64,000 bases of DNA from an uncultured Rhodobacteraceae bacterium (GTDB lineage Bacteria > Pseudomonadota > Alphaproteobacteria > Rhodobacterales > Rhodobacteraceae): the NCBI GenBank assembly GCA_947497985.1, contig CANMIX010000013.1, forward strand, positions 23,641 through 87,640. Reading direction: 5' to 3'. Made by a program: the position numbers and the translations under genes. This document shows, piece after piece, positions 1,595 through 25,511 of the stretch. The notes under the pieces were generated by a model. It saw only the letters and a program-made list of their open reading frames with translations, searched no databases and was not told where the DNA came from. Position 1 is the stretch's first letter, and the number at the start of each line of letters is the position of its first letter.

Positions 1595-1643
1595 ATCATA
1601 TTGCGCACATATGATTTGGGGATCATATTGACAATTTATGATC
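1595..1643. promoter_or_regulatory. two palindromic operator-like sites upstream of hipB
   Basis: ATCATAT-N7-ATATGAT (1595-1615) and GATCATA-N9-TATGATC (1621-1643). The second contains TTGACA (1628-1633). Both lie 30-80 nt upstream of the hipB ATG. Confidence 0.45.
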
Positions 1644-1675
1644 CAGAGGCCATATGGGGTGGCAGGAGAACCGCC

Positions 1676-1927
1676 ATGAAGCAACTCGTTCGTACATCAA
1701 AAAACTTGGGCCACGCAATTCGCCAGGCTCGGAAAGCCAAGAACCTGACACAGACGGAACTCGCCTCGATGAGCGGTGTCTGGCAGGAAACGATCTCCAA
1801 GATCGAAAACGGCAGCGGTGGCACCAAGCTGGAAACGCTATTTGATTTGATCGCGGCACTCGACCTCGAGATTACAGTGACCGAACGCAGTAGAGGCACA
1901 TCAGACGGGTTAGAGGACATTTTCTGA
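1676..1927 (+). CDS. hipB: HipB-type XRE-family antitoxin
   Basis: Internal ATG at 1676 preceded by GGCAGGAGA. HTH core LTQTELASMSGVWQETISKIENG. Stop lies 1 nt before the hipA ATG. Confidence 0.8.
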   Translation: MKQLVRTSKNLGHAIRQARKAKNLTQTELASMSGVWQETISKIENGSGGTKLETLFDLIAALDLEITVTERSRGTSDGLEDIF

Positions 1928-1928
1928 C

Positions 1929-3230
1929 ATGGGTCGCAAACGCAGCTACACACCGCTGAACGTCTTTCTGAACTCGCGGCTCGTGGGTCAATTGGTACGT
2001 GAGCCCTCAGGCGGCGTCAGTTTTGCCTATGCACGAGACTGGCTCGACTGGGAGCACAGGATGCCAGTGTCGCTATCGTTGCCATTGCAGGAAAACCGCT
2101 ACATCGGCGCACCTGTGATGGCTGTCTTTGACAACCTGTTGCCCGATAGTGATGTCATCCGCCGAAGGGTCGCGGAACGTGTCGGGGCCGAAGGCGTCGA
2201 TGCCTTCAGCTTGCTGTCACAAATTGGGCGGGACTGCATCGGTGCGCTTCAGTTTCTGCCCGACGGGCAAGAGCCACAGCCAATGTCCGAGCTGACTGGA
2301 GAACCTGTCGACGAGGCGCAGATCGGGGCCATTTTGAGCGACCTCGATCTAGCACCACTGGGTATCCGCCGAGAGAATGATTTCCGCATTTCTGTCGCTG
2401 GTGCACAGGAAAAAACCGCGCTACTTCGTAAAGATGGCCAGTGGGTTGAGCCAACCGGCACGACGCCAACCACGCACATCATTAAGCCGCAAATTGGTAG
2501 ACTGCCCAACGGTATGGACCTGTCCGATAGTGTTGAAAACGAATACCTGTGCCTCAAACTGATGGAGGCGTTTGGGCTTCGGGCTGCGAATGTCGAAATG
2601 GCTCAGTTTGGCGATAAGAAAGCCTTGGTGGTTGAGCGTTTTGATCGGCGCTGGACGTCTGATGGCCGCTTGATCCGTCTGCCACAGGAGGATTGCTGCC
2701 AAGCACTATCCATTGTGCCCACGCAAAAGTACCAGAACGAGGGCGGTCCAGGGATCTCGGATATCATGGATCTTTTGTTGGGAAGTGATGATCCCAACAA
2801 AGACAGGTACGATTTTTTCAAAGCGAATGTCCTGTTCTGGTTGGCGGGCGCGACAGACGGACATGGTAAGAACTTTAGCGTCAGCCTCTTACCCGGCGGC
2901 CGTTTCCGCATGACACCGCTTTACGACGTGCTGACGGTGCAGCCGACCGTCGACGCCCGGCAGATCGAGCGGAAATACTTCAAGCTCGCTATGAATTTCG
3001 GAAACTCAAACCACTACAAAGTGGCAAATATAGTCGGCCGCCACATCGTGGAGACAGGAGTTAAATCCGGCTTGTCCCGCGCTGTTGTGCAGGGCCTGTT
3101 CGAAGAGCTGCAGGAGACTTCGCACGCGATCGTTGAGGCTACATTCAATCAGCTTCCGGATGGTTTCCCTGAGACGTTGCTTTCTTCGATCGACGGCGCG
3201 CTGAAGGCTAGGTTGCACCTGTTGACCTAA
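1929..3230 (+). CDS. hipA: HipA-family serine/threonine kinase toxin
   Basis: 433 aa. HipA N-terminal motif ISVAGAQEKTALL and catalytic loop DGHGKNFS. Immediately follows an XRE antitoxin gene. Confidence 0.85.
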   Translation: MGRKRSYTPLNVFLNSRLVGQLVREPSGGVSFAYARDWLDWEHRMPVSLSLPLQENRYIGAPVMAVFDNLLPDSDVIRRRVAERVGAEGVDAFSLLSQIGRDCIGALQFLPDGQEPQPMSELTGEPVDEAQIGAILSDLDLAPLGIRRENDFRISVAGAQEKTALLRKDGQWVEPTGTTPTTHIIKPQIGRLPNGMDLSDSVENEYLCLKLMEAFGLRAANVEMAQFGDKKALVVERFDRRWTSDGRLIRLPQEDCCQALSIVPTQKYQNEGGPGISDIMDLLLGSDDPNKDRYDFFKANVLFWLAGATDGHGKNFSVSLLPGGRFRMTPLYDVLTVQPTVDARQIERKYFKLAMNFGNSNHYKVANIVGRHIVETGVKSGLSRAVVQGLFEELQETSHAIVEATFNQLPDGFPETLLSSIDGALKARLHLLT

Positions 3231-3499
3231 AGCTGGTCGCGCTTGCTTGGTGCCAAGATGCGTCATTCTGGTTCAAACGAAACCAGGTCAGATCGCCTTA
3301 GCCAAAAGCAGATCCTCAACGCCGTGTTTCTGATTTCTGAACATAAGCGGGCAGCCGTGACAGACGCGGTGCATGCCCCGCTTCAACAAGAAAATTCCCC
3401 TGCGCCAGCGCATTCCTCGCCAAGCAAGTTTCTAGCTGACAGCCCCTTGGTACCAGCTTTGGTCATGTTCATCGAAACACTCAAAGTGAGGATCAAAAA

Positions 3500-3697
3500 A
3501 TGGCTACTCAAACTCTGAAACTGAACGTCAAATCCGGTGAAAAAGACGGCAAGAACTTCTGGGACCGCTGCGGCGTCCTCTTCGTCAACACCGACGACAG
3601 CGGCAACATCAACTCGATCAACGTCAAACACAGCATGTTCCCCGATGTCGAAATGGTCGCCTTCCCGCGCCGCGATGACGATCCGGTCACCGAGTGA
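3500..3697 (+). CDS. small hypothetical protein (65 aa)
   Basis: ORF with a GAGGA-type RBS (gtgaggatcaaaaaATG). Followed directly by a strong hairpin. Vague resemblance to DUF736-type small ICE proteins (LKLNVK...), not secure. Confidence 0.4.
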   Translation: MATQTLKLNVKSGEKDGKNFWDRCGVLFVNTDDSGNINSINVKHSMFPDVEMVAFPRRDDDPVTE

Positions 3698-3705
3698 CCT
3701 CAGCG

Positions 3706-3728
3706 CCAAGGCGGGTCTCCCGCCTTGG
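3706..3728 (+). terminator. perfect 10-bp stem hairpin after the small ORF
   Basis: CCAAGGCGGG-tct-CCCGCCTTGG, 9 nt after the stop at 3697. The U-tract is weak (tcatacc), so it may be regulatory rather than a terminator. A second hairpin ATTTGCGG-N9-CCGCAAAT lies at 3760-3784. Confidence 0.35.
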
Positions 3729-3832
3729 TCATACCTGCGCCCCCCTGACGCTATGCAGGATTTGCGGATGCGAATCCCGCAAATAGCTGCTAGCAATACA
3801 GAAAAAACAATTTCGAGTAGGGACAACCTGTC

Positions 3833-6556
3833 GTGAATGCCGTTGAAATAGAAGAAGCCATTTCCGCGCTGGCGGAGCAACCGTTTGATGCGGTTGAATT
3901 TCCTTATGCTTTTCTGCTCGCCTTCGGCAACAAAGAAACCACGCTCAAACGTCTTCGCTCGGGCACATCGAACAAATCCGATCTGGACGGGGTTCTGCAA
4001 ACGAACAACATCCACCTGAAGCCCTGCGCGGCGGGCATGGTGTCTGAAACGCTGGCGGCGCTCAAATCCAGCCCCGCGACGACCAAAGCCAAAGCAAAAT
4101 TCATCCTCGCCACCGACGGACAGACGCTTGAGGCCGAGGATCTGAATAACGGCGACACCATCGCCTGTGACTTCAAAGAATTCCCCGATCACTTCGGCTT
4201 CTTCCTGCCGCTCGCAGGCATATCGACCGTCAAGCAAATCCGCGAAAGCTCGTTCGACATCAAGGCGACCGGCCGCCTCAACCGCCTCTATGTCGAGCTG
4301 CTGAAAACCAATCCCGATTGGGGCACAGCTGAGCGCCGCCATGACATGAACCACTTCATGGCGCGGTTGATCTTTCTGTTCTTCGCCGAAGACACCTCGA
4401 TCCTGAATGGTGAGGACCTGTTCACTGCTACCGTCACGCAAATGTCGGACAAAGACAGCTCGAACACCCACGAGGTGATCTCCGAACTGTTCCGCGCCAT
4501 GAACACCAAGATCGAGGACCGTCCCACTGCGAACCTGCCCCGCTGGGCTGAGACCTTCCCTTATGTGAATGGCGGGCTGTTTTCAGGCAGCACCGAGGCC
4601 CCCAAATTCTCCAAGATCGCGCGCAGCTACCTGTTGCACATCGGCTCGCTCGACTGGACCAAGATCAACCCCGATATCTTCGGCTCCATGATCCAGGCCG
4701 TGGCCGATGATGAAGAACGAGGCGCTTTGGGGATGCACTACACCTCAGTGCCCAACATCCTAAAGGTTCTGAACCCGCTCTTCCTCGATGATCTGAACGC
4801 ACAGCTTGAGGCGGCGGGGGACAACAAACGCAAGCTCGACAAACTGCGCTCGCGCATGTCGAAAATCCGCGTCTTTGATCCGGCCTGTGGCTCGGGCAAC
4901 TTCCTTGTCATCGCCTACAAGGAAATGCGCGCGATTGAGGCCAAAATTAACGCCTATTGCGGCGAACCCGATCGGCGCACGGAGATTCCGCTGACCAACT
5001 TTCGTGGGATCGAGCTGCGCGATTTCCCGGCCGAGATTGCCCGCCTTGCGCTGATTATCGCGGAATACCAGTGCGACGTGACATATCGCGGGCACAAGGA
5101 TGCACTGGCCGCCTTCCTGCCGCTGGATGCAGAGAACTGGATCACACAAGGCAACGCCTTGCGCCTTGATTGGCTGACTGTCTGTCCGCCGACTTCGCAA
5201 AAGGTCGACATGCGCGGCGAAGACCTGTTCATGTCCCCGCTAGAAAAGGCCCAGATCGATTTTAAGAACGAGGGCGGCGAGACCTATATTTGTGGTAACC
5301 CACCGTATATAGGTGATAAAAACCAATCGGCTGAACAAAAAAGCGATCTGAAACTCCTGGCCAGTGGCCAGAGAAACTCAAAAGCAATCGACTATGTTGT
5401 TGGTTGGATGTGGAAGGCGTCAGAGTACATAAAGCTGGGTGGGGCATTCGCATTTGTGACAACAAATTCGATTTGCCAAGGCATCCAGGTCCCGCTGATT
5501 TGGCCCAGAATTTTTGAGAACGGCCAAGAGCTGTTTTTTGCGCACAAAAGCTTCTATTGGCGCAACAGTGCCAGCAATAATGCTAATGTAATCTGCGTAA
5601 TTGTTGGTGTTCGGAATTGCATGAGCGGGAAAAAGTCCATTTTTGATGGAAGCATCGAAAAGCAGGCAGACAACATAAATGCTTATCTTGTCGATGGACC
5701 GAATGTTATTGTTCAAAAGCACTCTACCTCGATCTCAGATCTTCCGGCGATCGTTGCTGGGAACATTCCGCGCGACAAAGCGAACTTAATGCTTACGTCA
5801 GACGAGAAAGAGCGTTTGATAGCTGATGACCCCGAAGTGTCACAGATTGTTCGGAAAATATTGGGTTCGAAAGAATTCATCAACGGACTTGAACGGTTCT
5901 GTCTCTGGATACCTGACCAACTGGCAGACATTGCCTACGAAAACACGGTTATTCGCGAGCGCTTAGATCGGATTGTTGAATACAGGGAAAATGGAAGTGA
6001 GCGAGGAAAGCTTGGAGTTGCGACTCCGCACCGTTTTGAGAGAACAATTGTTGGCGAAAAAGATGCCATCATAATACCCCGGGTCTCCTCTGAACGACGT
6101 GAGTATCTTCCTGCTGGCCTTCTCGATAGTTCGACAATAATCTCCGATGCGGCGCAGGCGATTTACGATGCTCCGCTGTACACTTTTGCTGTTATTAGCT
6201 CTCGGATGCACATCGCATGGACTGGTTTGACAGCCGGTAGGATGAAGTCAGACTTCAGATATTCGGCGGGAGTTTGCTATAACAGCTTCCCAGTCCCTAA
6301 ACTGACCGAGAAAAACAAAGCGGACCTCACCCGCTGCGCCGAGGACATCCTGCTGGCCCGCGAGGCGCATTTCCCTGCCACCATCGCCGATCTCTACAAA
6401 CCCGACGCCATGCCCGAAAACCTCCGCGCCGCCCACGATCGCAACGACGAGGTGCTGGAACGTATTTACATAGGCCGCCGCTTCCGCAACGACACCGAAC
6501 GGCTGGAAAAGCTGTTTGAGCTCTACACCAAGATGACGACGAAGGCGGCGGTGTGA
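3833..6556 (+). CDS. MmeI/YeeA-like gamma-class N6-adenine DNA methyltransferase (907 aa)
   Basis: SAM motif VFDPACGSGNFLV. Catalytic NPPY (ICGNPPYIG, codons at 5297-5308). Size and order (N-terminal domain, MTase, long C-terminal TRD-like part) match MmeI-family layout. Confidence 0.8.
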   Translation: MNAVEIEEAISALAEQPFDAVEFPYAFLLAFGNKETTLKRLRSGTSNKSDLDGVLQTNNIHLKPCAAGMVSETLAALKSSPATTKAKAKFILATDGQTLEAEDLNNGDTIACDFKEFPDHFGFFLPLAGISTVKQIRESSFDIKATGRLNRLYVELLKTNPDWGTAERRHDMNHFMARLIFLFFAEDTSILNGEDLFTATVTQMSDKDSSNTHEVISELFRAMNTKIEDRPTANLPRWAETFPYVNGGLFSGSTEAPKFSKIARSYLLHIGSLDWTKINPDIFGSMIQAVADDEERGALGMHYTSVPNILKVLNPLFLDDLNAQLEAAGDNKRKLDKLRSRMSKIRVFDPACGSGNFLVIAYKEMRAIEAKINAYCGEPDRRTEIPLTNFRGIELRDFPAEIARLALIIAEYQCDVTYRGHKDALAAFLPLDAENWITQGNALRLDWLTVCPPTSQKVDMRGEDLFMSPLEKAQIDFKNEGGETYICGNPPYIGDKNQSAEQKSDLKLLASGQRNSKAIDYVVGWMWKASEYIKLGGAFAFVTTNSICQGIQVPLIWPRIFENGQELFFAHKSFYWRNSASNNANVICVIVGVRNCMSGKKSIFDGSIEKQADNINAYLVDGPNVIVQKHSTSISDLPAIVAGNIPRDKANLMLTSDEKERLIADDPEVSQIVRKILGSKEFINGLERFCLWIPDQLADIAYENTVIRERLDRIVEYRENGSERGKLGVATPHRFERTIVGEKDAIIIPRVSSERREYLPAGLLDSSTIISDAAQAIYDAPLYTFAVISSRMHIAWTGLTAGRMKSDFRYSAGVCYNSFPVPKLTEKNKADLTRCAEDILLAREAHFPATIADLYKPDAMPENLRAAHDRNDEVLERIYIGRRFRNDTERLEKLFELYTKMTTKAAV

Positions 6557-7311
6557 GCTTTGTGTTGAAACATATCTCTGTAGCAAAGGCATTGGCTTTG
6601 TTGGCCTTTGCGTGCGTCGCCCCATTTGTGAGTTTGGAAAACCCCTTCACGCATTGGGCTTGGCTCATCTTCGGCTGTCTAGCGATAACCATCGCAGCAT
6701 TGGAAGTTACTCACAATCGATCGCAAAACCTAGCGCCGGAAGAACAGGTGCGACAGTATTTGCTCGATTTCGATGGTTGGAAAAAAACTGAAAATGTAGA
6801 GCACTACGTGGCAGATCCCCAGTTCAGTATTCGCGAAGTCGAGAGCGATGTCTCATTGTCGTTCCAGCAGGAGTGGACGCGTGGTGAAATAGGCCGTCAC
6901 TATGATCACGGGAACGCTGCATTTTGTCTTGGTGTTTTTCACGGCTCAACGCTACTTCAAAAAATCCATTTAGTGTTATTCGATGGTGGCAAAAAGATCG
7001 CCGTCTCGCCGGACTGGAGCGCCATCGGAAAGGGCCGGATCTACTACTATGTCGCTGACAGTATCGAATATGCCTATCAAAGATTTCTCACTCGAGAGCG
7101 TATGACTGATCACTCTAAGGGCATAAACAACCCGGTTGGGTCAGGTTCAATCGACATCCCAGTTTTTGAGAATAAGTCTGAGCTTGAAAAATTTATGTCT
7201 CAGTACAGCATCGAACCAGTCGACTCGACCTCTGATGAGGAAGAGCAGAACAGGCTGTTCTTAGAGAATTTAGAGAAATATCGTTGTTTTAAAGAAGGTT
7301 GGGCCGTCTAG
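6553..7311 (+). CDS. membrane protein, two N-terminal TM helices plus soluble domain, unknown function
   Basis: GTG start overlaps the MTase stop (GTGA, 6553-6556). TM segments ALALLAFACVAPFV and WAWLIFGCLAITIAAL. Clearly AT-richer than its neighbours. Confidence 0.55.
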   Translation: MSFVLKHISVAKALALLAFACVAPFVSLENPFTHWAWLIFGCLAITIAALEVTHNRSQNLAPEEQVRQYLLDFDGWKKTENVEHYVADPQFSIREVESDVSLSFQQEWTRGEIGRHYDHGNAAFCLGVFHGSTLLQKIHLVLFDGGKKIAVSPDWSAIGKGRIYYYVADSIEYAYQRFLTRERMTDHSKGINNPVGSGSIDIPVFENKSELEKFMSQYSIEPVDSTSDEEEQNRLFLENLEKYRCFKEGWAV

Positions 7312-9365
7312 TGTCAAATTCAAAATCTGTTCCCTCCGTTTCCGTCACGTACGCGCAGAACCGCTCTTCCACTACCTCGAACGAGCTGGGCATGCGAAAG
7401 ATGCAAGAGCGCGCCTATGAGATGCGGGGTGAGCAGTATCTGCTAATCAAGTCGCCGCCCGCTTCGGGGAAATCGCGGGCGCTGATGTTCATTGCGCTCG
7501 ACAAGTTACACAATCAGAGTTTGAAACAGGCCATCGTGGTCGTGCCTGAAAAGTCCATCGGGTCGAGTTTTAACGACGAGCCGCTGAGCAAGTTCGGCTT
7601 TTGGGCAGATTGGCAAGTGAAGCCGCAATGGAACCTGTGCAACGCACCTGGCGAGGATGACGGTAAGGTGGGGGCGGTTGGACGGTTCCTTGAGAGTGAT
7701 GGTCAGGTGCTGGTCTGCACCCACGCGACGTTCCGTTTTGCCGTCGATAAATTCGGGATCGAGGCCTTTGACGATCGGGTGATTGCAGTGGATGAATTCC
7801 ACCACGTCTCGGCCAATCCCGACAACAAGCTCGGCGCGCATCTGGGCACGTTCATTGCCCGCGACAAGGTTCATCTGGTTGCGATGACAGGGTCGTATTT
7901 CCGGGGCGACGCCGAAGCCGTCTTGTCGCCCGAGGATGAAGCCCGGTTTGAAACGGTCACCTACACCTATTACGAGCAGCTCAATGGCTATGAGCATCTG
8001 AAGACGCTCGATATCGGCTATTTCTTCTACACAGGGTCCTATGCTGACAGCATTCTGGAGGTTCTGGACCCCGCCGAGAAAACCATCGTCCACATCCCGA
8101 ATGTGAATTCGCGCGAAAGCACCAAAGACAAGCACAAAGAGGTCGAGCATATCATCGACAGCTTGGGTGAGTGGAAGGGGCTTGATCCTGATACCGGTTT
8201 CCAGTTGGTCGAAACGCCCGAAGGCCGCGTGTTGCGCATCGCTGATTTGGTGGATGATGAGGCGGCGAAGCGTGACAAGGTTGCGAGCGCCTTGAAAGAC
8301 CCCGCGCAAAAAAACAACCGCGATCACGTTGACATCATCATCGCGCTCGGGATGGCGAAAGAAGGGTTCGACTGGATCTGGTGTGAGCATGCCTTGACCG
8401 TTGGCTATCGTGCGAGCTTGACCGAGATCGTGCAAATCATCGGCCGCGCGACCCGTGATGCCGAAGGTAAAATGAAGGCGCGCTTCACCAACCTGATCGC
8501 GGAACCCGATGCGGGTGAAGAGGCCGTGACCGAGGCCGTAAACGATACGCTCAAAGCCATAGCGGCAAGTTTGCTGATGGAGCAGGTTCTTGCGCCGCGT
8601 TTCAACTTTACGCCCAAGACACACACGAGCGGACCTGTCGAAGGTTTCGACTACGGTGAAGGCGGCTATGATCCCAATAAAGAGAACGTCGGATTTGATG
8701 CGGCCACAGGGCAAATCCAGATGGAAATCAAAGGCCTTGCTGAACCCAAAAGCGAATTCGCGCGACGTATCTGTGATGAGGACCTGAACGAAGTCATAAC
8801 CGCATTTGTTCAGGACAAAACGACGATTGAACGCGGGCTCTTTGACGACGAGATGGTCCCAGAGGAGCTAACGCAAGTGCGAATGGGCAAGATTGTCGGC
8901 ACCAAGTTTCCAGAACTTAATGCGGAAGACCAAGAAGCCGTACGCCAGCATGCAATCGCGGCTCTGAACCTCACCCAGAAAGCGAAAGAAATCGCACTGT
9001 CAGATGCAGAAGCGGATGAAACTGGCGGCAATACAGCCTTGATTGATGGTGTGCGAAAATTTGCGATGGATGTACGTGAGTTGGATATCGATTTGATCGA
9101 TCGCATCAATCCGTTCGGCGAGGCCTATTCGATCCTTGCGAAAACCATGAGCGAAGATAGCCTCAAACAGGTTCAGGCCGTCATTTCGGCGAAAAAGGTA
9201 AAGCTTTCGCCAGATGAGGCCCGAGACTTGGCCAAACGTGCAGTCAAGTTCAAGCAGGAGCGTGGACGGTTGCCATCGATCACCTCTGCGGATGCCTGGG
9301 AAAAGAAAATGGCTGAAGGCGTCGCCTTCCTTGCGCGCATGAAGCAGGAGGCAGCAAATGTCTAA
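7299..9365 (+). CDS. DEAD/DEAH-box (DExH) superfamily-2 helicase
   Basis: Motif I SPPASGKS, motif II VDEFHH, motif III MTGS, motif VI QIIGRATRD. The start is either TTG 7299 or GTG 7311; the latter overlaps the upstream TAG. Confidence 0.8.
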   Translation: MGRLVSNSKSVPSVSVTYAQNRSSTTSNELGMRKMQERAYEMRGEQYLLIKSPPASGKSRALMFIALDKLHNQSLKQAIVVVPEKSIGSSFNDEPLSKFGFWADWQVKPQWNLCNAPGEDDGKVGAVGRFLESDGQVLVCTHATFRFAVDKFGIEAFDDRVIAVDEFHHVSANPDNKLGAHLGTFIARDKVHLVAMTGSYFRGDAEAVLSPEDEARFETVTYTYYEQLNGYEHLKTLDIGYFFYTGSYADSILEVLDPAEKTIVHIPNVNSRESTKDKHKEVEHIIDSLGEWKGLDPDTGFQLVETPEGRVLRIADLVDDEAAKRDKVASALKDPAQKNNRDHVDIIIALGMAKEGFDWIWCEHALTVGYRASLTEIVQIIGRATRDAEGKMKARFTNLIAEPDAGEEAVTEAVNDTLKAIAASLLMEQVLAPRFNFTPKTHTSGPVEGFDYGEGGYDPNKENVGFDAATGQIQMEIKGLAEPKSEFARRICDEDLNEVITAFVQDKTTIERGLFDDEMVPEELTQVRMGKIVGTKFPELNAEDQEAVRQHAIAALNLTQKAKEIALSDAEADETGGNTALIDGVRKFAMDVRELDIDLIDRINPFGEAYSILAKTMSEDSLKQVQAVISAKKVKLSPDEARDLAKRAVKFKQERGRLPSITSADAWEKKMAEGVAFLARMKQEAANV

Positions 9366-10551
9366 GGGGTTCACCGACGAGGATGATGCGCTGCTCGCGG
9401 AACTTGGTGTTGAAATCGAGACCAAGAAGATTGCCGCACGTACCCCGCGAGAGGAACGTATTATTGCGGGCTTTGAAGAAATCCAGAGGTTTGTAGACAA
9501 GAATGGGCGCGTCCCTGGCCATGGCGACGACAAGGATATCTTTGAACGCCTCTTTGCGACCCGGCTTGAACGGCTGCGTGAACTTGGCGAGGGAAGAGAT
9601 CTGATTTCAGACATGGACCATCAAGGTCTTCTTGCTGCTGAAAACCCGGTCGAAGATACTGCCCTCGAAGATCTTGATGACGATGCATTGCTGGCAGAGC
9701 TTGGCATCGCCGTAGAAGCGCCATCCATTTCGGAACTGAAACACGTTCGCTCCACGTCGGAGAAAAAAGCTGCCGAGGAGGTTGCAGGGCGTGAAAAGTG
9801 TGAAGAATTCGACACCTTTAAACCGCTCTTCGAGCAGATTCAGAAGGAACTGGATTCTGGCTTACGGGAAACGCGTAAGTTTGAGCTTAAGGCTGAGATT
9901 GAACCAGGCCGTTTCTTTATCGTCGGAGGGCAAAAAGCCTACGTCGCGGAAATGGGCGACATAGAGCTTACAGACCACGGCCGAACAGATGCACGCCTGC
10001 GGGTGGTGTTCGACAACGGCACACAAAGCAAGATGCTCATGCGGTCGCTTCAGCGTGCACTCAATGCTGATGGGGATGCCGGGCGCAGGATCACAGAGCC
10101 GAATGCTGGCCCGCTGTTTGCCGACGAAACCGCTGAAGGTGATGAAGCGAGCGGAACCATCTATGTGTTACGAAGCCGTTCAGATCATCCATTGGTCGCC
10201 GCAAACCGAGAGCTTGTTCACAAGATTGGCGTGACGAGCAATGACGTTGAGAAGCGCATTGCGGGCGCGCAGCTTCAGACAACCTTCTTGATGGCCAAGG
10301 TTGATGTTGTAGCAACCTACGATCTCTACAATATCAATCGCAGCAAGTTGGAAACACTTCTGCACCGGATTTTCGCGCCAGCCCAATTGGATATCGAGAT
10401 TCCCGATCGACTTGGTCGCCCGATGAAACCAAGGGAATGGTTCTTAGTGCCTTTGTTCGCCATCGAGGAAGCGGTTGAGCGGATCAAGGACGGCACGATT
10501 TCGCGCTATGTGTATGACCCGAGCAACGCCGCACTAGTTCTGCGAGACTAA
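9358..10551 (+). CDS. T5orf172/GIY-YIG-superfamily domain protein (putative nuclease)
   Basis: ATG overlaps the helicase stop by 8 nt. C-terminal half has GTIYVLRS ... HKIGVTSNDVEKRI ... REWFLVP, typical of T5orf172 (MUG113-like) domains. N-terminal half is acidic, with a duplicated DDALLAELG motif. Confidence 0.7.
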   Translation: MSKGFTDEDDALLAELGVEIETKKIAARTPREERIIAGFEEIQRFVDKNGRVPGHGDDKDIFERLFATRLERLRELGEGRDLISDMDHQGLLAAENPVEDTALEDLDDDALLAELGIAVEAPSISELKHVRSTSEKKAAEEVAGREKCEEFDTFKPLFEQIQKELDSGLRETRKFELKAEIEPGRFFIVGGQKAYVAEMGDIELTDHGRTDARLRVVFDNGTQSKMLMRSLQRALNADGDAGRRITEPNAGPLFADETAEGDEASGTIYVLRSRSDHPLVAANRELVHKIGVTSNDVEKRIAGAQLQTTFLMAKVDVVATYDLYNINRSKLETLLHRIFAPAQLDIEIPDRLGRPMKPREWFLVPLFAIEEAVERIKDGTISRYVYDPSNAALVLRD

Positions 10552-10825
10552 CATAGGTGAATTTTGGGTGGAAACGGCCCTTAGCGGACCTTCGAACGAA
10601 GCGCAGCAGATGACCGCTGTCAGCTCTTTGCAGACCGTGGTGCAAGGCGCAGGATCGCTTGGCGCCGACACGACGGGCACAAAGCGGACGATCGGCACAC
10701 ATCGCAAAAAAATATGTGTTATACGCAGTTAGCGACCTTGGCTTCTCCCCACTAAAGCGGCCACCATCTGCGCCTAGATCAGGTATAGCCAAAAGGCTCT
10801 CAATACAGAGTTTCGGAGTATTATT

Positions 10826-12331
10826 TTGACGCGAATAATTGACTTGGAATTTTCTGCGGCAAGGACTTATCTGGAAAAGCCAGAATGCTATTTCCGGTCA
10901 GACTTCCCCCCGTACATCAGCTTTGAAGCTATCTTAAAGGATACGGCAGCGGTATTGGGCAGTGATACCTACCTTGCCTTCCAAAAGCCAAAGCCCAACC
11001 GTGCCGTTGACATATCTGGTGTCAATTATGAACTTCTGAGCACCAAAGATGGTCGCTTTGCTTGGCGACCGTTCGAGCTTATACACCCAGCAATTTACAT
11101 GACATTGGTTGGGATTTTTTGCGAAGAGGCAAACTGGAAGCTGCTTCAAGAACGGTTCGAGGAGCTTCACTCAGGTATAGTAGAATGCACCAGCTTTCCC
11201 ATGGCGTCAAATGGGGAAGACAAACATGATGCTGTCCAAGTTCGAAATTGGTGGCTGCGATACGAACAGCGCTCGCTAGAGCTATCAATGGACTACACAC
11301 ACCTATTGAAAACGGATGTGTCTAATTGCTACGGGTCACTCTATACGCACAGCATTGCATGGGCTCTGCACGGATACGAGGCCGCCAAGGCAGCCCAGAC
11401 TGACAAGAACCTGCTTGGAAACCAGATCGATTTCCACATTCGCAATAGCCGATATGGTCAGACGAATGGAATCACCCAGGGCTCCGTTCTTATGGATATC
11501 GTCGCTGAGTTGGTTTTGGCGTACGTCGATCACCTGATCACTGATAAGATTGAAGGAGAAAAGGATTTTCATATCCTTCGGTATCGTGACGATTACAGCA
11601 TCTTCACAGTGAATGATCAGCGGGCGTTCGAGATCGTCAGAGTGATTAGCGACTGTCTCAGGAAGGTTGGAATGCAGCTCGGCGCGGCAAAGACTTCGGT
11701 GAACAGCAATATCATTGAAGGCGCTATTAAGCCAGAAAAGCTGGCAGGTGTGCAACTCGAAGACATGGATATCACGCAAGCTAAGACCGTTCAAAAGCAG
11801 CTATTGCGACTACACGCGTTTGCTCGTTTGTATCCCAACACTGGCGCAATCAAGCGGCTAGCGGATGCTGCGTTCCAAAAGATATCGAAGATCACTGAGC
11901 CCCCCGAAGATTTGGGCGTTCAGGTGGCGATTTCTTGTGATATCGCTGTGGTTTCGCCCGGCGCTTTTCCTGCCATATCGGGCATTCTTGCCAAGTTGAT
12001 TTCGCTTGCGCCAGAACCGGATCGCCCGGAGATGTGGGGAAGGGTCGCTGAGAAGATGAAGAGGATACCGCACAACGGTCACCTCGAGGTTTGGCTACAG
12101 CGGGTCACAAAGGCGAAAGGTGTTGAGCTCGCCTTTGCAAGCACCGAGCCGATTTGCGAGATAGTCAACGGTAAAAGTGTTCAGCTGTGGAACAATGACT
12201 GGACTAGCAGTCCCGATCTACTTGCTGCCCTAGATGTTTCCAAGATCGTTGTTAGCAGTCCGGGAGATCTCGACCCAGTTCCGGATACAAGTGAGCTTTC
12301 TCTTTTCCGTGAGTACGCTGAATTCTCCTAG
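10826..12331 (+). CDS. stand-alone reverse transcriptase, Abi/UG (defence-associated) type
   Basis: RT motifs TDVSNCYGSLYTHS, GITQGSVLMDIVAELVL, YRDD (11582-11593) and GAAKTS. About 170-aa helical C-terminal region. TTG start. No endonuclease, maturase-like or Cas domain seen. Confidence 0.75.
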   Translation: MTRIIDLEFSAARTYLEKPECYFRSDFPPYISFEAILKDTAAVLGSDTYLAFQKPKPNRAVDISGVNYELLSTKDGRFAWRPFELIHPAIYMTLVGIFCEEANWKLLQERFEELHSGIVECTSFPMASNGEDKHDAVQVRNWWLRYEQRSLELSMDYTHLLKTDVSNCYGSLYTHSIAWALHGYEAAKAAQTDKNLLGNQIDFHIRNSRYGQTNGITQGSVLMDIVAELVLAYVDHLITDKIEGEKDFHILRYRDDYSIFTVNDQRAFEIVRVISDCLRKVGMQLGAAKTSVNSNIIEGAIKPEKLAGVQLEDMDITQAKTVQKQLLRLHAFARLYPNTGAIKRLADAAFQKISKITEPPEDLGVQVAISCDIAVVSPGAFPAISGILAKLISLAPEPDRPEMWGRVAEKMKRIPHNGHLEVWLQRVTKAKGVELAFASTEPICEIVNGKSVQLWNNDWTSSPDLLAALDVSKIVVSSPGDLDPVPDTSELSLFREYAEFS

Positions 12332-12896: not shown

Positions 12897-13775
12897 ATGG
12901 CACCGAAGTTTGATGTTTATGCCCATGTCACCGAAACCATTATTGCAGAGATTGAGGCAGGCACTCCGCCATGGCGCAAGCCTTGGACTGGGAGCGCGTC
13001 CGGCATTGCCCTGCCGACCCGCCACAACGGGGAGGAGTATCGCGGAATTAACGTCCTGATGCTCTGGATCATGGCGGCCAAGCATGGCCATGTGTCCAGC
13101 CGCTGGATGACTTATAAACAGGCCCAAGAGCTGGGCGGTCAGGTCCGCAAAGGCGAAACGTCGTCGACAGTGGTGAAGTACGGGACGTTCACACGAGAGA
13201 ACGAGTTGGGCATCGAGGAAGAGCTGCCCTATGCGCGCGCCTATCGCGTGTTCAACGCGGATCAGATCGAAGGTTTACCGGAGGATTACTACATCCGGCC
13301 CGAGGCCCCGCGCGACCTTGGGACGGCCGAAGATCCTGAGCTTGAGGCGTTTTTTGGCCGGACAGGGGCGGAGATCCTCACCAGCGACGACCCGCGCGCC
13401 TATTACAGCCCCGCCAAAGATCACATCCATATGCCGCCGATCGCCACGTTTCACGATGCGGCAGGCTACTATGGGACTTTGGCCCATGAGGTGATCCATT
13501 GGACTGGCAGCGAAAAGCGGTTGGAGCGGATCAAGAAATTTGCGAACCGCGAAGCCTATGCCTTTGAAGAGCTGGTGGCGGAAATCGGTGCTTGTTTCCT
13601 TGGGGCTCAGATTGGCGTCGCGCCGGAGTTCGACCAAAGCGCCGCTTATGTTGAAGGTTGGTTGAAAGCGCTCAAAGAGGACAAAAAGGCGATTTTTCGG
13701 GCAGCGTCTGAGGCCCAGAAGGCAGCCGATTTTGTTTTGCAAGCAGCAGGTCAGAGCAAGGAGGTGGCAGCATGA
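12897..13775 (+). CDS. ardC: ArdC-like antirestriction protein (ssDNA-binding N-domain plus zincin metalloprotease)
   Basis: PPWRKPW motif near the N-terminus. HEVIHW (HExxH) in the C-terminal half. AAGGAGG RBS before the ATG. Confidence 0.85.
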   Translation: MAPKFDVYAHVTETIIAEIEAGTPPWRKPWTGSASGIALPTRHNGEEYRGINVLMLWIMAAKHGHVSSRWMTYKQAQELGGQVRKGETSSTVVKYGTFTRENELGIEEELPYARAYRVFNADQIEGLPEDYYIRPEAPRDLGTAEDPELEAFFGRTGAEILTSDDPRAYYSPAKDHIHMPPIATFHDAAGYYGTLAHEVIHWTGSEKRLERIKKFANREAYAFEELVAEIGACFLGAQIGVAPEFDQSAAYVEGWLKALKEDKKAIFRAASEAQKAADFVLQAAGQSKEVAA

Positions 13776-13975
13776 TCCCGGACTATCACAGCGATGATTA
13801 TTCGACAGCACGTCTGGAAGACACTGTCAGCTTGCGAAGTGCCGCCCGTGAGGCCCGCGCAACGCTTTACGCGGTGTTGAACCGGCTGGAGCTGAACGAT
13901 CTGGAGGGCGAGGAGCAGCCCTATATCGACGATTGCCTTGGGGCTCTCGCAATTCTTGAGGAAGCGTTGCGATGA
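13772..13975 (+). CDS. small acidic hypothetical protein (67 aa)
   Basis: ATGA start/stop overlap with ardC. Codon usage matches the backbone. Confidence 0.5.
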   Translation: MIPDYHSDDYSTARLEDTVSLRSAAREARATLYAVLNRLELNDLEGEEQPYIDDCLGALAILEEALR

Positions 13976-14196
13976 CCTTGGCAGGCATCAAGGCAGCAGT
14001 GGACGCGGGCAACCGCGTTCATTGGGTCAACAGCGGGTATGTGGTGACGCGTGATGACCTCGGGCAATACCTCATCACTTTCACGCGAAACGGGTCGGCT
14101 ATCGGTTTGACCAGTTGGGATGGCACCCGCCTGAACGGCAAGCCTGACGAATTTTTCATCGGGGAAAACGCCGAGGTTTGCCATGAAGTATTCTGA
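13972..14196 (+). CDS. small hypothetical protein (74 aa)
   Basis: ATGA overlap with the previous ORF. Same strand and operon. Confidence 0.5.
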   Translation: MTLAGIKAAVDAGNRVHWVNSGYVVTRDDLGQYLITFTRNGSAIGLTSWDGTRLNGKPDEFFIGENAEVCHEVF

Positions 14197-14464
14197 CATC
14201 AGGCAGGCGGCCCGTGAGGGCCGCTCCAGCGTGCATCTTCATGGGTTTTGCAATCTGCCCGATGGCGGGCAGGAGTATTGTGACGATCTGGTGCTGATCG
14301 ATGGCTGGGCGATTTATGTCCGAGTTGAGACCCCGGACGACCCGCAACAGCCCTTTGATCTACACGAGCTGCCCGATCATCAAACCTATGCCAGCGCCGA
14401 AGGCGCGGCCCGCGCAATAGCGCTGCAATTGCTTGGCGATGCTGAGGCGTGGAACCACGATTAG
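14183..14464 (+). CDS. small acidic hypothetical protein (93 aa)
   Basis: Overlaps the previous ORF by 14 nt. Ends 24 nt before the oriT-like structured region. Confidence 0.5.
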   Translation: MKYSDIRQAAREGRSSVHLHGFCNLPDGGQEYCDDLVLIDGWAIYVRVETPDDPQQPFDLHELPDHQTYASAEGAARAIALQLLGDAEAWNHD

Positions 14465-14487
14465 TGGTGCCATGCCTTGCGCATAGG

Positions 14488-14605
14488 GCCGGGCTTTGCC
14501 CGGCGGTCGCAGCCTATGGCTGCTCCAAACGGAATACAGGCAGTTGATGCAATATTATAATATTGAATCAATTATGGCGAAATGCCATAACAGGGCTGCC
14601 TGTAT
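14488..14605. other. candidate oriT / relaxosome assembly region
   Basis: Nested inverted repeats directly upstream of mobC-relaxase. GCCGGGC-ttt-GCCCGGC (14488-14504). GCAGCC-tat-GGCTGC (14509-14523). ATACAGGCAG (14534-14543) pairs with CTGCCTGTAT (14596-14605), and this pair encloses the 16-bp palindrome CAATATTATAATATTG (14550-14565) and TTATGGC-gaaat-GCCATAA (14572-14590). Confidence 0.6.
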
Positions 14606-14638
14606 GATGCTGGCAAGAAATAGGGGTGATTACTTCAC

Positions 14639-15229
14639 ATGGGCCGACCGCGCGCACCACGGCACAAGCGACTGACGCAAAATCAACGTTTTGCCATCGT
14701 GCGCAAGCGTGCCGAAGGGGTGCCGATCGAGGATCTGGCCCGTGAATTCGGGGTAACGACCCGCAGCATCTTCTACACATTGAAGGCCGATCAAAGCCGC
14801 AAGCTTGATGCGCGCGTGCGCTCTGAACTGGTGAATGTCCGGCTCACGCCAAAGGAGCTTGCGAGCTTTGATGCGGTGCTGACGCGGCATGATATCACCA
14901 ACCGCGCCGAGGGGCTGAGGCGGCTGATCCATGCCTCAAACGATCTCTTTGTTCCCGACGATGAACTGGCCAATCAGATGCAGGGGCTCTCGGCCTCGCT
15001 CAATCGCACCGGCAACAACATCAACCAGATCGCGCAGCGCCTGAACGAGGCAAAGCGCCAGGGCAAGACGCCGCCTTATGGCAATTCTGCCCATGGTCAG
15101 GTGCGCGCTTTGGCCGGGCTGATCTTCGACATCGCGGACCAGGTCCAAGACATGGCGCAGCGCCGCCGAAGCGCGCTGTCTGGCGAGGTTGCCCGCGTTC
15201 TGGGAGGCTTTGCCGATGGCCCGGAATAG
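14639..15229 (+). CDS. mobC: MobC-type relaxosome accessory protein with N-terminal HTH
   Basis: RLTPKELASFDAVL ... RAEGLRRLI and NNINQIAQRLN motifs, typical of MobC-family mobilisation proteins. Overlaps the relaxase start. Confidence 0.75.
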   Translation: MGRPRAPRHKRLTQNQRFAIVRKRAEGVPIEDLAREFGVTTRSIFYTLKADQSRKLDARVRSELVNVRLTPKELASFDAVLTRHDITNRAEGLRRLIHASNDLFVPDDELANQMQGLSASLNRTGNNINQIAQRLNEAKRQGKTPPYGNSAHGQVRALAGLIFDIADQVQDMAQRRRSALSGEVARVLGGFADGPE

Positions 15230-17024
15230 CGCCGTTGCCGCCGCGCAGCAGGCCTTCTTCGATCGTGACTGGAGCCGCATTCGCGGCAGCGTTCCACGCG
15301 CCCGTGCAAAGCAGATGGCGCGCGCGGCCATGGGCCATTCACCCGCGATCTTCAAAGCCATTCGCGACGGCGGCACACACAACAAAACGCAGCTGCGCAA
15401 CCAGCTGGAATACCTGACCACCAAGTCGAGCTTTATCATCGATAGCCGTGGCACCTATGACGGCCAAAGCGTGCTATCAGGCAAGGAGATCGAGCAGGTT
15501 ACGCGCCGGTTTTCCGCACGGTGGAATGAGGGGTTCCATCCCAAACTGGGACATACCTCGCACCTCTTGATGGCCTTCCCGATTGGCACGCGCGGCGAGG
15601 ATGTCGCCGAGATCACGCGCGAGATCTGCGAGCGTTTCTTTCAAGGTGAAGGCAGCCAATTTGACTACATCGCCGCCGTGCATGAGGACCGGGACCATCC
15701 ACACGCTCATATCGTCCTGAACCGGCGCAGCAAGGACGGTGAATTCTTTTTTCTGAAAGAAGGGCACCATTTCAACTACGACAGTTTTCGCGAGGCAATG
15801 GTTGAGGTGTCGGACCGCTATGGGTTGCGGCTTGAGGCGACCCGAAAGCTCGAACGTGGGATCACGACGAAGAGGCCAAGCGATGCAGACCAGCGTCGCG
15901 CGGAAGCCAAGGGCCAGAAGCTGACCGAACGTGAGCGCGTGGGGCCGGAGCTTGACCGTGCCTTGGCTGACGTGGCGCAGAACGCGCGGCTTTATCGCGG
16001 CCTGGCCGCCGAGGCCTCGCGCGAGAACCAGCATGACATTGCAGCAGCCTTGGAGAAGGCCGCGACGTTATTGGCGCAGGGCAAACCGATTGAAGCAGAT
16101 GGAAAGGTATATGGCATGGCCGAAGAACAGCATTCGTTTGATGAGGTCGTGGATGCCTTTCACGACAAGATCAACCAAGCCGAACGCATTGTGGCGGACG
16201 CCCCGGTGGAGCGGCGTGCCGCGCTGGAGCATGAGCTGAACGACATCTATCGCTCTTTGTCGCATCTCAGCCCAATGGGAACGCAGTCCCATACCTTGCT
16301 TGAGGATGCGTCCAAGAGTGGGATCTATTCGGCCGCGAACATTCAGGCCGACGCCCAAGTTGCATTGCAGGATCCAGCTCTTTCTGAACGTCTTCAGCAG
16401 GCTTTGAAAGGCACAGGCATTGACGCGCAGGATGTTGCGCGTCGCGTCGAAATAGGCGCGGGCAATGCCGCACTGGAGCGGCAATGGCTTGGCCAGGATT
16501 TGAAGGCGATTGCCGAGAAGGAAGGCTTTGACCTGTCACGCGCCGATCAGCTGGAGAAGGCGATCGACCGTCTCGACGAGGTGCACAGTGAGCTGGGCCG
16601 TGTCTTGGCCGATGCTGAGGTTCTCAAGGACAGTGGTTCGGTGGAGTCTGACCGGCAAGAAGCCATAATCGACCGGTTGCCGCCGACCACCTCTGACATC
16701 CTGAGCCGTTTGAGAGATGATCCGACCGCAGATCCATTCCGTAGCGATCTGGAACGCGAGACCTTGCGCTCCGAGCTGGAGGAACTGGTCGGTGAAGAAA
16801 ACACACCGGACTTGGCGATTGGCGATGAGACCACGCTGGAGGAACATATCGAAGACCGTCTGGACCGTCTCTATGCGGCCAAGGCCTATCTGCAGAGCGA
16901 TGCCGCTTTGGCGAACAGCGTGGCGATGGAGCATGTCCTCGACGAGATCGCCAATGAGGAAATAGATCTCCAACGCGAGCGGCATGTCGATGCCGACGGC
17001 GAAAAGGGCGTGACGCATGGGTAA
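15216..17024 (+). CDS. conjugative relaxase (VirD2/MOBQ-P-like)
   Basis: Histidine triad VHEDRDHPHAHIVL (HxDxxxPHxH). Preferred ATG at 15216 (MARNSAV), inside the ORF called from 15189. Long acidic helical C-terminus. Confidence 0.85.
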   Translation: MARNSAVAAAQQAFFDRDWSRIRGSVPRARAKQMARAAMGHSPAIFKAIRDGGTHNKTQLRNQLEYLTTKSSFIIDSRGTYDGQSVLSGKEIEQVTRRFSARWNEGFHPKLGHTSHLLMAFPIGTRGEDVAEITREICERFFQGEGSQFDYIAAVHEDRDHPHAHIVLNRRSKDGEFFFLKEGHHFNYDSFREAMVEVSDRYGLRLEATRKLERGITTKRPSDADQRRAEAKGQKLTERERVGPELDRALADVAQNARLYRGLAAEASRENQHDIAAALEKAATLLAQGKPIEADGKVYGMAEEQHSFDEVVDAFHDKINQAERIVADAPVERRAALEHELNDIYRSLSHLSPMGTQSHTLLEDASKSGIYSAANIQADAQVALQDPALSERLQQALKGTGIDAQDVARRVEIGAGNAALERQWLGQDLKAIAEKEGFDLSRADQLEKAIDRLDEVHSELGRVLADAEVLKDSGSVESDRQEAIIDRLPPTTSDILSRLRDDPTADPFRSDLERETLRSELEELVGEENTPDLAIGDETTLEEHIEDRLDRLYAAKAYLQSDAALANSVAMEHVLDEIANEEIDLQRERHVDADGEKGVTHG

Positions 17025-18909: not shown

Positions 18910-19098
18910 CGGGCAGAGAGCGGTCGTTCGCTGCACTGGTATCGTTTCACTTGATTTGTTAGTTAAGCAGACATTCGCGGGAGGTCGTAATGTGGATCGG
19001 GAGTGGTCCCCCCTTCGTGTGGACTATGCTGACTTTCTCATCCAATTGCAGGTCTGGCAGTGTAGGCTTATTAACGGAATAGTTGGTGGGATTGTGAC

Positions 19099-21375: not shown

Positions 21376-21484
21376 CTCTCCTGCTCCAATGATTCTGCGT
21401 TTTCTCATAAAGGGCACTTGACTTAGCTTGTGGCGAACCAACAGCGGCCCATCGCTGTTCGGCATTTATAAGGACATTAGTTTA

Positions 21485-24187: not shown

Positions 24188-24315
24188 TGTTGCGTCATTA
24201 GGCTATGCTGGTCCATCCCAATTGTCCGATAGAGAGAATTGCTGCGAGTTGCACCAATGTCAGCTTGCGGGGACCTAATTGTGGGGCGCTGAATGTCGGC
24301 TCAGGGCCGAAATCC

Positions 24316-25314: not shown

Positions 25315-25334
25315 AGGATCCCCCTCAGTTAGGT

Positions 25335-25511
25335 TTAGGCGGTCGCGCCGGTGCGACGTTTCAGGAAGGCTTTCAGAATGTGCTCACCGTCGAAATCCGG
25401 CACCACCGACACCAGCTCCCAGCCAGCTTGGCCAAGGGCGGTCAGCTGCGCTTCGATCTTCGGTGGCTTGGTTTTGGCGGTGTTGATCTGTTCAATCTTG
25501 TATTCAAACAT
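25335..25511 (-). CDS. small protein, DUF4177-like
   Basis: Internal ATG at 25511 (MFEYKIEQINT...) overlaps the virB11 stop by 8 nt. The longer ORF called to 25580 overlaps virB11. Confidence 0.5.
   Translation of the reverse strand: MFEYKIEQINTAKTKPPKIEAQLTALGQAGWELVSVVPDFDGEHILKAFLKRRTGATA

Follow-up and report, generated by a model that had tools for sequence, protein, structure and literature searches.

A 64,000-nt stretch of contig CANMIX010000013.1 from an uncultured Rhodobacteraceae bacterium, which we refer to in its entirety as the window, carries a four-gene operon on a conjugative element with defense genes as neighbors. The four overlapping open reading frames (ORFs) listed for the plus strand (3833-6556, 6553-7311, 7299/7311-9365, and 9358-10551) encode, in order, an MmeI-family DNA methyltransferase (MTase), a small protein with two predicted transmembrane (TM) helices that we call P2, a superfamily 2 (SF2) helicase, and a T5orf172/GIY-YIG-superfamily protein. 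The features of the operon are given below with the basis of each assignment in parentheses.

3756-3832, plus strand: conserved 5′ leader, a likely operon boundary or regulatory region (87% identical, across 77 nt, to the corresponding position of Maritimibacter locus L012)
3833-6556, plus strand: gene 1, DnmA/YeeA-type MmeI-family N6-adenine DNA MTase with a fused target-recognition domain (TRD), 907 aa, GTG start (Pfam, PADLOC, phmmer)
3833-4306, plus strand: MTase N-terminal domain, residues 1-158, homologous to the MmeI nuclease domain and, by sequence, without its ExK pair (hhalign)
4874-4903, plus strand: S-adenosylmethionine-binding motif I, FDPACGSGNF, residues 348-357 (motif position)
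5297-5308, plus strand: catalytic motif IV, NPPY, residues 489-492 (NPP[Y/F] in 65 of 65 full-length orthologs)
5693-6304, plus strand: TRD, residues 621-824, the specificity determinant (Pfam MmeI_TRD, 2e-72)
6553-7311, plus strand: gene 2, embedded guest gene P2, 252 aa (PADLOC PDC-S50, surveys, AlphaFold2 [AF2] model)
6574-6726, plus strand: P2 N-terminal 2-TM module (hydropathy, AF2)
6730-7302, plus strand: P2 conserved soluble domain, PDC-S50-related (PADLOC)
7311-9365, plus strand: gene 3, YeeB-type SF2 helicase/translocase, 684 aa from GTG 7311 or 688 aa from TTG 7299 (Pfam, motifs)
7467-7475, plus strand: helicase motif GKS, residue 53 (invariant in an alignment of five orthologs)
7791-7802, plus strand: helicase motif DEFH, residue 161 (invariant in the same alignment)
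8433-8456, plus strand: helicase motif QIIGRATR, residue 375 (invariant in the same alignment)
9195-9281, plus strand: PMBR-like repeat near the helicase C-terminus (Pfam)
9358-10551, plus strand: gene 4, YeeC-type T5orf172/GIY-YIG-superfamily protein, 397 aa (Pfam MUG113 7.5e-16, T5orf172 3e-12)
10153-10485, plus strand: nuclease-like domain of the YeeC-type protein, residues 266-376 (Pfam)

A first-pass annotation, made from the letters of the window, had described these genes as a four-gene operon with overlaps at 6553-6556, 7299-7313, and 9358-9365, and direct reading of the sequence confirmed both the ORFs and the junctions. The MTase and P2 genes share the four nucleotides GTGA at 6553-6556, and the P2 stop codon (TAG, 7309-7311) overlaps a GTG at 7311 by 1 nt; of the two possible helicase starts, we favor this GTG over the TTG at 7299 because homologs measure 682-684 aa. 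The helicase and nuclease genes overlap by 8 nt at 9358-9365 (ATGTCTAA), and an AGGAGG Shine-Dalgarno sequence lies within the end of the helicase gene, 5′ of the nuclease start. A scan of 3200-11000 for promoter and terminator consensus sequences gave fewer matches than shuffled sequences and was uninformative. Searches for near-identical DNA found none in E. coli genomes or phages and only diverged alphaproteobacterial matches in plasmids.

The 907-aa MTase contains all five Pfam MmeI domains: MmeI_N (E = 1e-35) is followed by MmeI_hel, MmeI_Mtase (2e-109), MmeI_TRD, and MmeI_C, with E-values for the last four ranging from 6.5e-25 to 2.2e-109. The PADLOC profile REase_MTase_IIG matched the protein over its full length with 960 bits, and a phmmer comparison with MmeI (5HR4) gave 2.6e-136 for an alignment that starts only at residue 88 and leaves the first ~90 residues unaligned. 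These domains and the presence of motifs I and IV agree with the initial assignment of this protein as a gamma-class N6-adenine MTase of the MmeI family, and we predict that it is the specificity and modification subunit of the system. The TRD diverges rapidly among relatives, with a mean pairwise identity of 0.43 compared to 0.70-0.86 in the other MTase domains.

For the N-terminal domain, we used hhalign to compare a 72-sequence family profile with residues 1-205 of MmeI (residues verified against the PDB sequence) and obtained a match with 97% probability. In this alignment, a family-invariant aspartate (Asp50) lies opposite Asp70 of MmeI, the catalytic Glu80 of MmeI is replaced by a family-invariant histidine (His61), and the position of MmeI Lys82 is occupied in the window protein by Lys63, which is not conserved in the family. 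As judged by sequence, the ExK half of the nuclease motif is lost from the MTase N-terminal domain. This result bears on the intactness of the MTase nuclease core, which had initially been left undecided, as does a prior study in which the homologs YeeA and MslORFHP displayed no endonuclease activity (Morgan et al., 2009; PMC2731913). The residues originally suggested as nuclease candidates (ATD, 93-95, and DFK, 113-115) instead align with MmeI residues ~113-135, outside the catalytic Asp70/Glu80/Lys82 set, and Asp113 and Lys115 vary within the family. The domain is strongly conserved, with a mean pairwise identity of 0.75, in keeping with a function other than catalysis, for example docking, and we predict that the helicase and nuclease dock onto it or communicate with the MTase through it. 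When modeled with AF2, the domain had a predicted local distance difference test (pLDDT) score of 78, and residues 20-125 formed a confident core. A Foldseek search of this model against the PDB gave no significant match and no nuclease fold, returning only weak matches to the anticodon-binding domains of aminoacyl-tRNA synthetases (TM-score ~0.2), an outcome compatible with either the presence or the absence of a degenerate PD-(D/E)XK fold.

The third protein gave weak Pfam matches to DEAD/ResIII together with the PMBR match, and its GKS, DEFH, and QIIGRATR motifs are all present, in agreement with the separate SF2 helicase that the first-pass annotation had recognized. The placement of the fourth protein in the T5orf172/GIY-YIG superfamily was likewise upheld by Pfam, and its IYVLRS, KIG, R, and REWF elements are conserved across 79 orthologs; we predict that it is the DNA-cleaving subunit. 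Sequence searches of the PDB found no relative of either the helicase or the T5orf172 protein. By eye, the PMBR match near the helicase C-terminus (…FKQERGRLPS…, 9195-9281) resembles the N-terminal region of the nuclease (…FVDKNGRVPG…, 9445-9570), as if both were copies of one short helical repeat, which might serve a common interaction or contact DNA. A separate observation concerns locus L001 on the Roseomonas mucosa plasmid NZ_CP025190.1, where the MTase region (5924-8749) has no annotated coding sequence and a stop-codon map suggests a frameshift near 7436-7515, with intact helicase and GIY-YIG genes 3′ of this region. The frameshift could be a sequencing error, or it could fit with cleavage that depends on the MTase.

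The helicase belongs to a large family, with at least 8000 homolog clusters in a protein search. When one genome per species was scanned, at least 576 species representatives carried the helicase, and we examined the loci of the best 80 of these carriers (L012-L091, with the helicase match usually at 8001-10040). All 80 helicases are at least 78% identical to that of the window, across phyla. The isolates among them include Alpha-, Beta-, and Gammaproteobacteria and Firmicutes (Tumebacillus, Cohnella), with the Roseobacter group, Halomonas/Vreelandella, and Cupriavidus also represented, and the metagenome-assembled genomes include those of Acidobacteriota, Bacteroidota, and Desulfuromonadales. 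Identity this high across phyla points to strong purifying selection and wide horizontal transfer. Such conservation of a YeeB-type helicase, from the Roseobacter group to Acidobacteriota and Bacteroidota metagenome-assembled genomes, is unusual for a defense gene.

Gene order and the region between the MTase and helicase genes were scored in 76 loci, those where the contig allows it. The order MTase-helicase-nuclease was present in 76 of 76 loci, and the helicase and nuclease genes overlap in 52 of 52 (by 8 nt in 42 loci and by 20 nt in 10). This conservation of order and overlap is far beyond chance. Among five loci, the helicases were 78-90% identical, the nucleases 58-72%, and the MTases 62-70%, and genes in the middle of the operon showed no detectable similarity in any pair. 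All of the window genes are full length relative to their orthologs. The conserved motifs, the conserved overlaps, and the divergence of the TRD are marks of a selected, specificity-diversifying, mobile system rather than of a relic.

The MTase-helicase junction behaves as a slot for unrelated genes. It is empty (gap of 100 bp or less) in 30 of the 76 loci and holds 0.3-2.7 kb of same-strand ORFs in the other 46 (61%). These ORFs fall into 26 clusters including that of P2, leaving at least 25 unrelated families in other loci, and the first embedded ORF overlaps the MTase stop codon by exactly 4 nt in 27 of 45 loci. By Pfam, the occupants include RhuM, the YhcG/DUF1016 nuclease, GmrSD_N, NucS-like, PLD/NgoFVII-like, and SLFN_AlbA_2-HATPase_c_4 proteins, as well as BrnT, YafQ with RelB, a ribbon-helix-helix (RHH) protein with ParE (ParDE), and CcdB. 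The commonest occupant is an unannotated family of ~137 aa with no Pfam or PADLOC match, which is found in 12 loci (for example L015 5791-6207, L022 3535-3948, L034 7591-8004, and L002 6201-6614) and is sometimes stacked with a PLD-like or other gene. Our analysis adds one modest new point, namely that operons of this family host embedded genes at a precise junction, and a term search of a recent study of embedded defense genes found no mention of IIG, MmeI, GIY-YIG, or T5orf172 hosts (Payne et al., 2024; bioRxiv 10.1101/2024.01.29.577857). Guilt-by-embedding mining of the slot, following the logic of that study, could yield further defense candidates, including the 137-aa family and the P2 domain that is shared with TIR- and caspase-fused proteins.

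In the window, the slot is occupied by P2. Hydropathy peaks at residues ~17 and ~44 and AF2 helices at residues 8-25 and 31-58 agree on the 2-TM character that had been read from its sequence. Residues 60-227 match positions 171-341 of the 387-position PADLOC profile PDC-S50 (E = 1.2e-14), leaving the N-terminal AlbA_2 region of the profile unmatched; ~370-aa relatives carry a Schlafen/AlbA_2 domain at the N-terminus, whereas P2 carries the 2-TM module at the same end. PDC families are PADLOC candidates derived from embedded genes, with BREX, DISARM, and Type I restriction-modification (R-M) systems as the hosts (Payne et al., 2024; bioRxiv 10.1101/2024.01.29.577857), and P2, embedded in a methylation-based defense operon, resembles them in the very feature by which they were found. 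A literature search for "PDC-S50" found no paper and no experimental test. The AF2 model of P2 is confident (pLDDT 86), and a Foldseek search against the PDB and BFVD gave no match at E <= 1e-3, so no function can be proposed from its fold.

The P2 family is rare, with 22 clusters, and a profile search of 1.84 billion representatives gave 271 relatives. P2 was absent from all 80 orthologous loci in our survey. Its closest relatives that we examined (P0009 and P0004, 51-89% identity) all occupy the MTase-helicase slot, and the order MTase, P2 relative, helicase, nuclease occurs in L005, L006, and L092. In L092, which lies beside CBASS, the P2 relative shares the slot with a second small gene (135 aa) that does not belong to the 137-aa family. 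More distant relatives stand alone outside the operon in unrelated neighborhoods (L007, L009, L011). At L009 (8424-10116, Hydromonas duriensis SNZE01000001.1), an AlbA_2-fused relative and a small stand-alone GIY-YIG gene lie between gcvH and gcvP, and this interruption of the glycine-cleavage (gcvTHP) operon looks like a mobile two-gene insertion. Elsewhere the P2-type C-terminal domain is fused to AlbA_2, TIR, caspase, FRG, or DUF4062 domains, with Schlafen/AlbA_2 the most frequent partner among ten members checked, and in the lineage of the window's P2 it is joined to the two TM helices. The pairing of one constant domain with exchangeable modules of effector type suggests a protein that is sensor and effector in itself. 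P2 is most likely an independent abortive-infection-type effector that acts on its own, and the 2-TM form would, as we infer it, act on the membrane.

Prior work on homologs provides a framework for these observations. Two sets of MmeI homologs have been described, one with a PD-ExK motif and a second without it, and proteins of the second set are unlike MmeI over their initial ~100 residues and always adjoin genes for a YeeB-like DEAD-family helicase and a YeeC-like GIY-YIG protein (Morgan et al., 2009; PMC2731913). The mechanism proposed there has the MmeI-like subunit provide specificity and protective single-strand methylation and its N-terminal domain interact with separate helicase and endonuclease subunits. 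YeeA, since renamed DnmA, is necessary and sufficient for N6-methyladenine (m6A) at GACGAG in Bacillus subtilis; deletion of dnmA is viable, as fits MTase-dependent cutting, and transformation is not restricted in this organism (Nye et al., 2020; PMC7261158). YeeB- and YeeC-type genes lie at positions +1 and +2 of DnmA homologs across bacteria, and an "uncharacterized protein family" has been noted as a possible further member of the locus in some of them (Fernandez et al., 2023; PMC9973331). Finally, the yeeAB genes of Vibrio crassostreae 7F1_18 confer resistance to one group of phages, and their inactivation restores sensitivity (Piel et al.; bioRxiv 10.1101/2021.05.05.442762). Methylation, the lack of endonuclease activity in the MTase by itself, and phage resistance have each been demonstrated by others in homologs.

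Based on these results, we consider it probable that genes 1, 3, and 4 form a DnmA(YeeA)-YeeB-YeeC-type, MTase-guided restriction-like defense system on a conjugative element and that gene 2 is a separate guest. The locus has the features of the class: an MmeI-like MTase with TRD and without a PD-ExK motif, followed by a YeeB-like and then a YeeC-like gene. The first-pass annotation had proposed an R-M-like module of split architecture, similar to the Bacillus yeeA-yeeB-yeeC arrangement and with the membrane gene as an additional component. The likeness to Bacillus is borne out, and the module retains its pairing of a nuclease-motif-less MTase with a helicase and a GIY-YIG gene; the membrane gene is not supported as a part of it, given its absence from 80 of 80 loci, a slot that is empty or filled by other genes (30 and 46 of 76 loci, respectively), and distant relatives outside the operon. 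The idea of a split mechanism is sound but was already published in 2009 (PMC2731913), and the window holds an intact copy of a known class.

In the mechanism that we envision, the MmeI-family protein would recognize a short asymmetric site through its TRD and would methylate one adenine to m6A, marking host DNA. Its N-terminal domain, with the ExK pair apparently lost, would couple the MTase to the co-translated SF2 helicase and T5orf172/GIY-YIG nuclease. At an unmethylated site, the MTase-bound complex would damage foreign DNA by means of ATP-driven translocation and the separate nuclease, which would make restriction MTase-dependent, as it is in Type I systems. The P2 gene would have been spliced into the translation chain of the operon at a general landing junction for defense and toxin-antitoxin genes.

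Several points weigh against this interpretation. The window locus is known from its sequence alone, the YeeB and YeeC assignments are based on domains and synteny, complex formation through the MTase N-terminal domain is purely our inference, and the nuclease activity of the YeeC/T5orf172 protein is predicted. Foldseek placed the N-terminal domain in no nuclease fold or any other fold, and the invariant Asp50, Gln56, His61, Asp95, and Glu102 residues of this domain may, from their conservation, constitute an unconventional active site. As the B. subtilis homolog neither restricts transformation nor protects against phage, activity cannot be assumed for every copy. Moreover, the closest P2 relatives that we examined were always found in the same slot, so P2 may be functionally linked to the operon that hosts it.

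This last point leads to an alternative in which P2 is wired to its host operon as a guard or back-up, like PrrC to EcoprrI, is silenced by the MTase-helicase-nuclease complex until a phage anti-restriction protein disables this complex, and then permeabilizes the membrane. The overlaps that tie P2 into the operon are precise (4 nt with the MTase stop, 1 nt with the helicase start), first embedded ORFs in other loci commonly share the 4-nt overlap (27 of 45), the closer relatives P0009 and P0004 keep to the slot, PrrC itself is cited as being almost exclusively embedded in Type I R-M systems, and the effector-type N-terminal modules (2-TM, TIR, caspase) sit on a constant domain that could be a sensor. 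We nevertheless think a guard role unlikely, as distant members of the P2 family stand alone without R-M genes, PDC-S50-type proteins were defined from other hosts (BREX, DISARM, and Type I R-M), and the slot also accepts plain toxin-antitoxin modules that need no host complex. In its fullest form, second-line immune genes would have in the slot a docking site of their own, with precise coupling, and P2 would be a new membrane abortive-infection effector, consisting of a 2-TM module and a sensor domain of uncharacterized fold that in other proteins would drive TIR or caspase modules, and triggered when phage counter-defense disables the R-M-like complex. We likewise think this version unlikely; if true, it would be a guard of the PrrC type, for which this system has no described precedent. 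Still closer integration, with P2 as an integral fourth subunit that anchors the complex in the membrane and localizes it to sites of DNA entry, would follow from the four-gene architecture first proposed and could draw on the translational coupling of P2 on both sides and on the four-gene order of L005, L006, and L092. However, P2 is missing from every one of the 80 loci, whose helicases share at least 78% identity; in 30 of 76 loci nothing occupies the slot and in the rest it holds unrelated genes, the helicase, nuclease, and MTase N-terminal domain are nearly the same with or without P2, and in unrelated contexts the P2 soluble domain has TIR, caspase, or AlbA_2 as its fusion partner. A fourth-subunit role is accordingly the least probable of the alternatives, and we give it very little credence.

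A different possibility is that the operon has decayed to the point where only the MTase works, as an orphan epigenetic regulator of the kind proposed for B. subtilis DnmA, and that the downstream genes are non-functional. The B. subtilis dnmA-yeeB-yeeC genes show neither restriction nor phage protection and this copy has been called a relic (PMC9973331), DnmA affects gene expression in B. subtilis (PMC7261158; PMC9973331), and the MTase of the Roseomonas plasmid locus L001 is apparently frameshifted. In the window, by contrast, all reading frames are intact and full length. Dozens of orthologs share the catalytic motifs of the helicase and nuclease, helicase identity of at least 78% across phyla indicates strong purifying selection, the TRD is diversifying, the locus lies on a conjugative element among other defense genes, and the Vibrio homolog is active. 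Furthermore, YeeB and YeeC of B. subtilis lack C-terminal stretches that are present in the active Vibrio proteins (PMC9973331). We therefore consider decay of the window operon improbable, and we retain the reading of an MTase-guided three-gene defense system with an embedded guest.

The genes that surround the operon include the following.

1601-3230, plus strand: HipB (HTH_3) and HipA (Couple_hipA + HipA_C) toxin-antitoxin pair, directly upstream (Pfam)
10826-12331, plus strand: AbiP2-type defense reverse transcriptase, full length, a separate gene (PADLOC AbiP2 2.2e-169, Pfam RVT_1)
12897-13775: ArdC-type anti-restriction protein (ArdC-N/MPTase-PolyVal)
19099-21375: full-length PDC-S73 match, Mrr_cat + nSTAND3 (PADLOC 4.9e-132)
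21428-24187: full-length PDC-S06 match, AAA_13 (PADLOC 2.4e-164)

The AbiP2-type gene begins 274 nt downstream of the operon. In the region from 12897 to 26505, genes of the conjugative element specify ArdC, a relaxase, the TraG coupling protein, TrbL/VirB6, and an ATPase resembling VirB11, with the PDC-S73 and PDC-S06 genes between them. Type IV secretion system genes are among the neighbors of the operon, and the element carries both an anti-restriction gene and several defense genes. Genes for tRNA-Cys (47849-47922, minus strand) and tRNA-Gly (48925-48998, plus strand) lie ~37 kb downstream and, should the element be an integrative and conjugative element and not a plasmid, could mark where it is bounded by integration. 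A 600-bp spacer separates hipA from the MTase gene, and two ORFs there, 3243-3518 and 3537-3836, look spurious because their translations are of low complexity. A shorter ORF of 65 aa that overlaps them (3500-3697, plus strand; MATQTLKLNVKSGEKDGKNFWDRCGVLF...) is protein-like and non-repetitive, with no PADLOC match. A minority of related loci (L002-L006, L014, L015, L024, L047, L056, L062, and L063) have RHH/VapB-like and PIN (VapC) genes 5′ of the MTase gene, with the stop codon of the PIN gene overlapping the MTase start, and L092 has an XRE-type helix-turn-helix (HTH) gene at this position. The window has neither an XRE-type HTH gene nor a VapB/VapC pair there, and a tblastn search of 3100-3900 found no remnant of vapBC, RHH-PIN, or HTH genes of the kind known from other loci.

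Comparison with known systems supports assignment to the DnmA-YeeB-YeeC class. MmeI (5HR4) and other single-chain Type IIL/IIG enzymes share with the window MTase the order of N-terminal domain, helical spacer, gamma-class m6A MTase, TRD, and C-terminal domain, but MmeI has the Asp70-X9-Glu80-X-Lys82 nuclease motif and needs no helicase or separate nuclease. We rejected a single-chain Type IIL enzyme for the window, where the D-X9-E-X-K motif retains Asp50, has His61 in place of the glutamate, and has a non-conserved Lys63. BREX was rejected on the basis of NCBIfam PglX scores of 19-24 bits, compared to cut-offs of 400-900, and of neighbors (HipBA, AbiP2, ArdC) that are not BREX genes. Hma and DISARM were likewise rejected: the helicase matches only PbeA and SngC, and those weakly, the MTase matches DrmMI partially (TRD and C region), and no Hma model appears among the listed PADLOC matches. 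Type I R-M was excluded as well, and the resemblance to it is functional only: Type I systems have a separate HsdS specificity subunit and an HsdR that joins a ResIII helicase to a PD-(D/E)XK nuclease, whereas in the window one chain carries both MTase and TRD, no nuclease domain is present in the helicase, and the nuclease is a separate T5orf172 protein. PADLOC recognizes only the MTase, as Type IIG, and the three-gene system consequently goes unreported as such; a literature search found no newer name for DnmA-YeeB-YeeC-type systems.

The closest counterpart is the B. subtilis DnmA(YeeA)-YeeB-YeeC cluster, in which the gene for an MmeI-like MTase-TRD protein without PD-ExK likewise precedes, on one strand, those for an SF2 helicase and then a T5orf172/GIY-YIG protein, in horizontally acquired, defense-rich DNA. 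That cluster has no gene between the MTase and helicase, whereas the window has a guest gene, and the B. subtilis copy is reported not to restrict and encodes shorter versions of YeeB and YeeC, whereas the window copy is proteobacterial and resides on a conjugative element. The V. crassostreae yeeAB genes resemble the window by gene naming (methylase plus helicase) and lie in a strain-specific region beside another defense system, and the paper that reports them describes no embedded gene. As a host for embedded genes, the window operon is comparable to Type I R-M systems, in which PrrC (in EcoprrI) and TgvAB (in V. cholerae VPI-2; PMC11411939) are unrelated defense genes within a methylation-based operon, and to Hma loci, 62.7% of which have embedded genes (Payne et al., 2024; bioRxiv 10.1101/2024.01.29.577857) compared to 46 of 76 loci in the present family, with shared types of occupant such as GmrSD-like proteins. 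The window operon differs from these hosts in having no HsdS/HsdR, PglZ/BrxC, DrmA-C, or Hma proteins. The core of the DnmA-YeeB-YeeC class is known, with a helicase and a T5orf172 partner for which sequence searches found no PDB relatives, and an intact copy on a conjugative element would be a reasonable model for how an MmeI-like MTase, which in MmeI itself carries its own nuclease, might hand over to a separate motor and nuclease.

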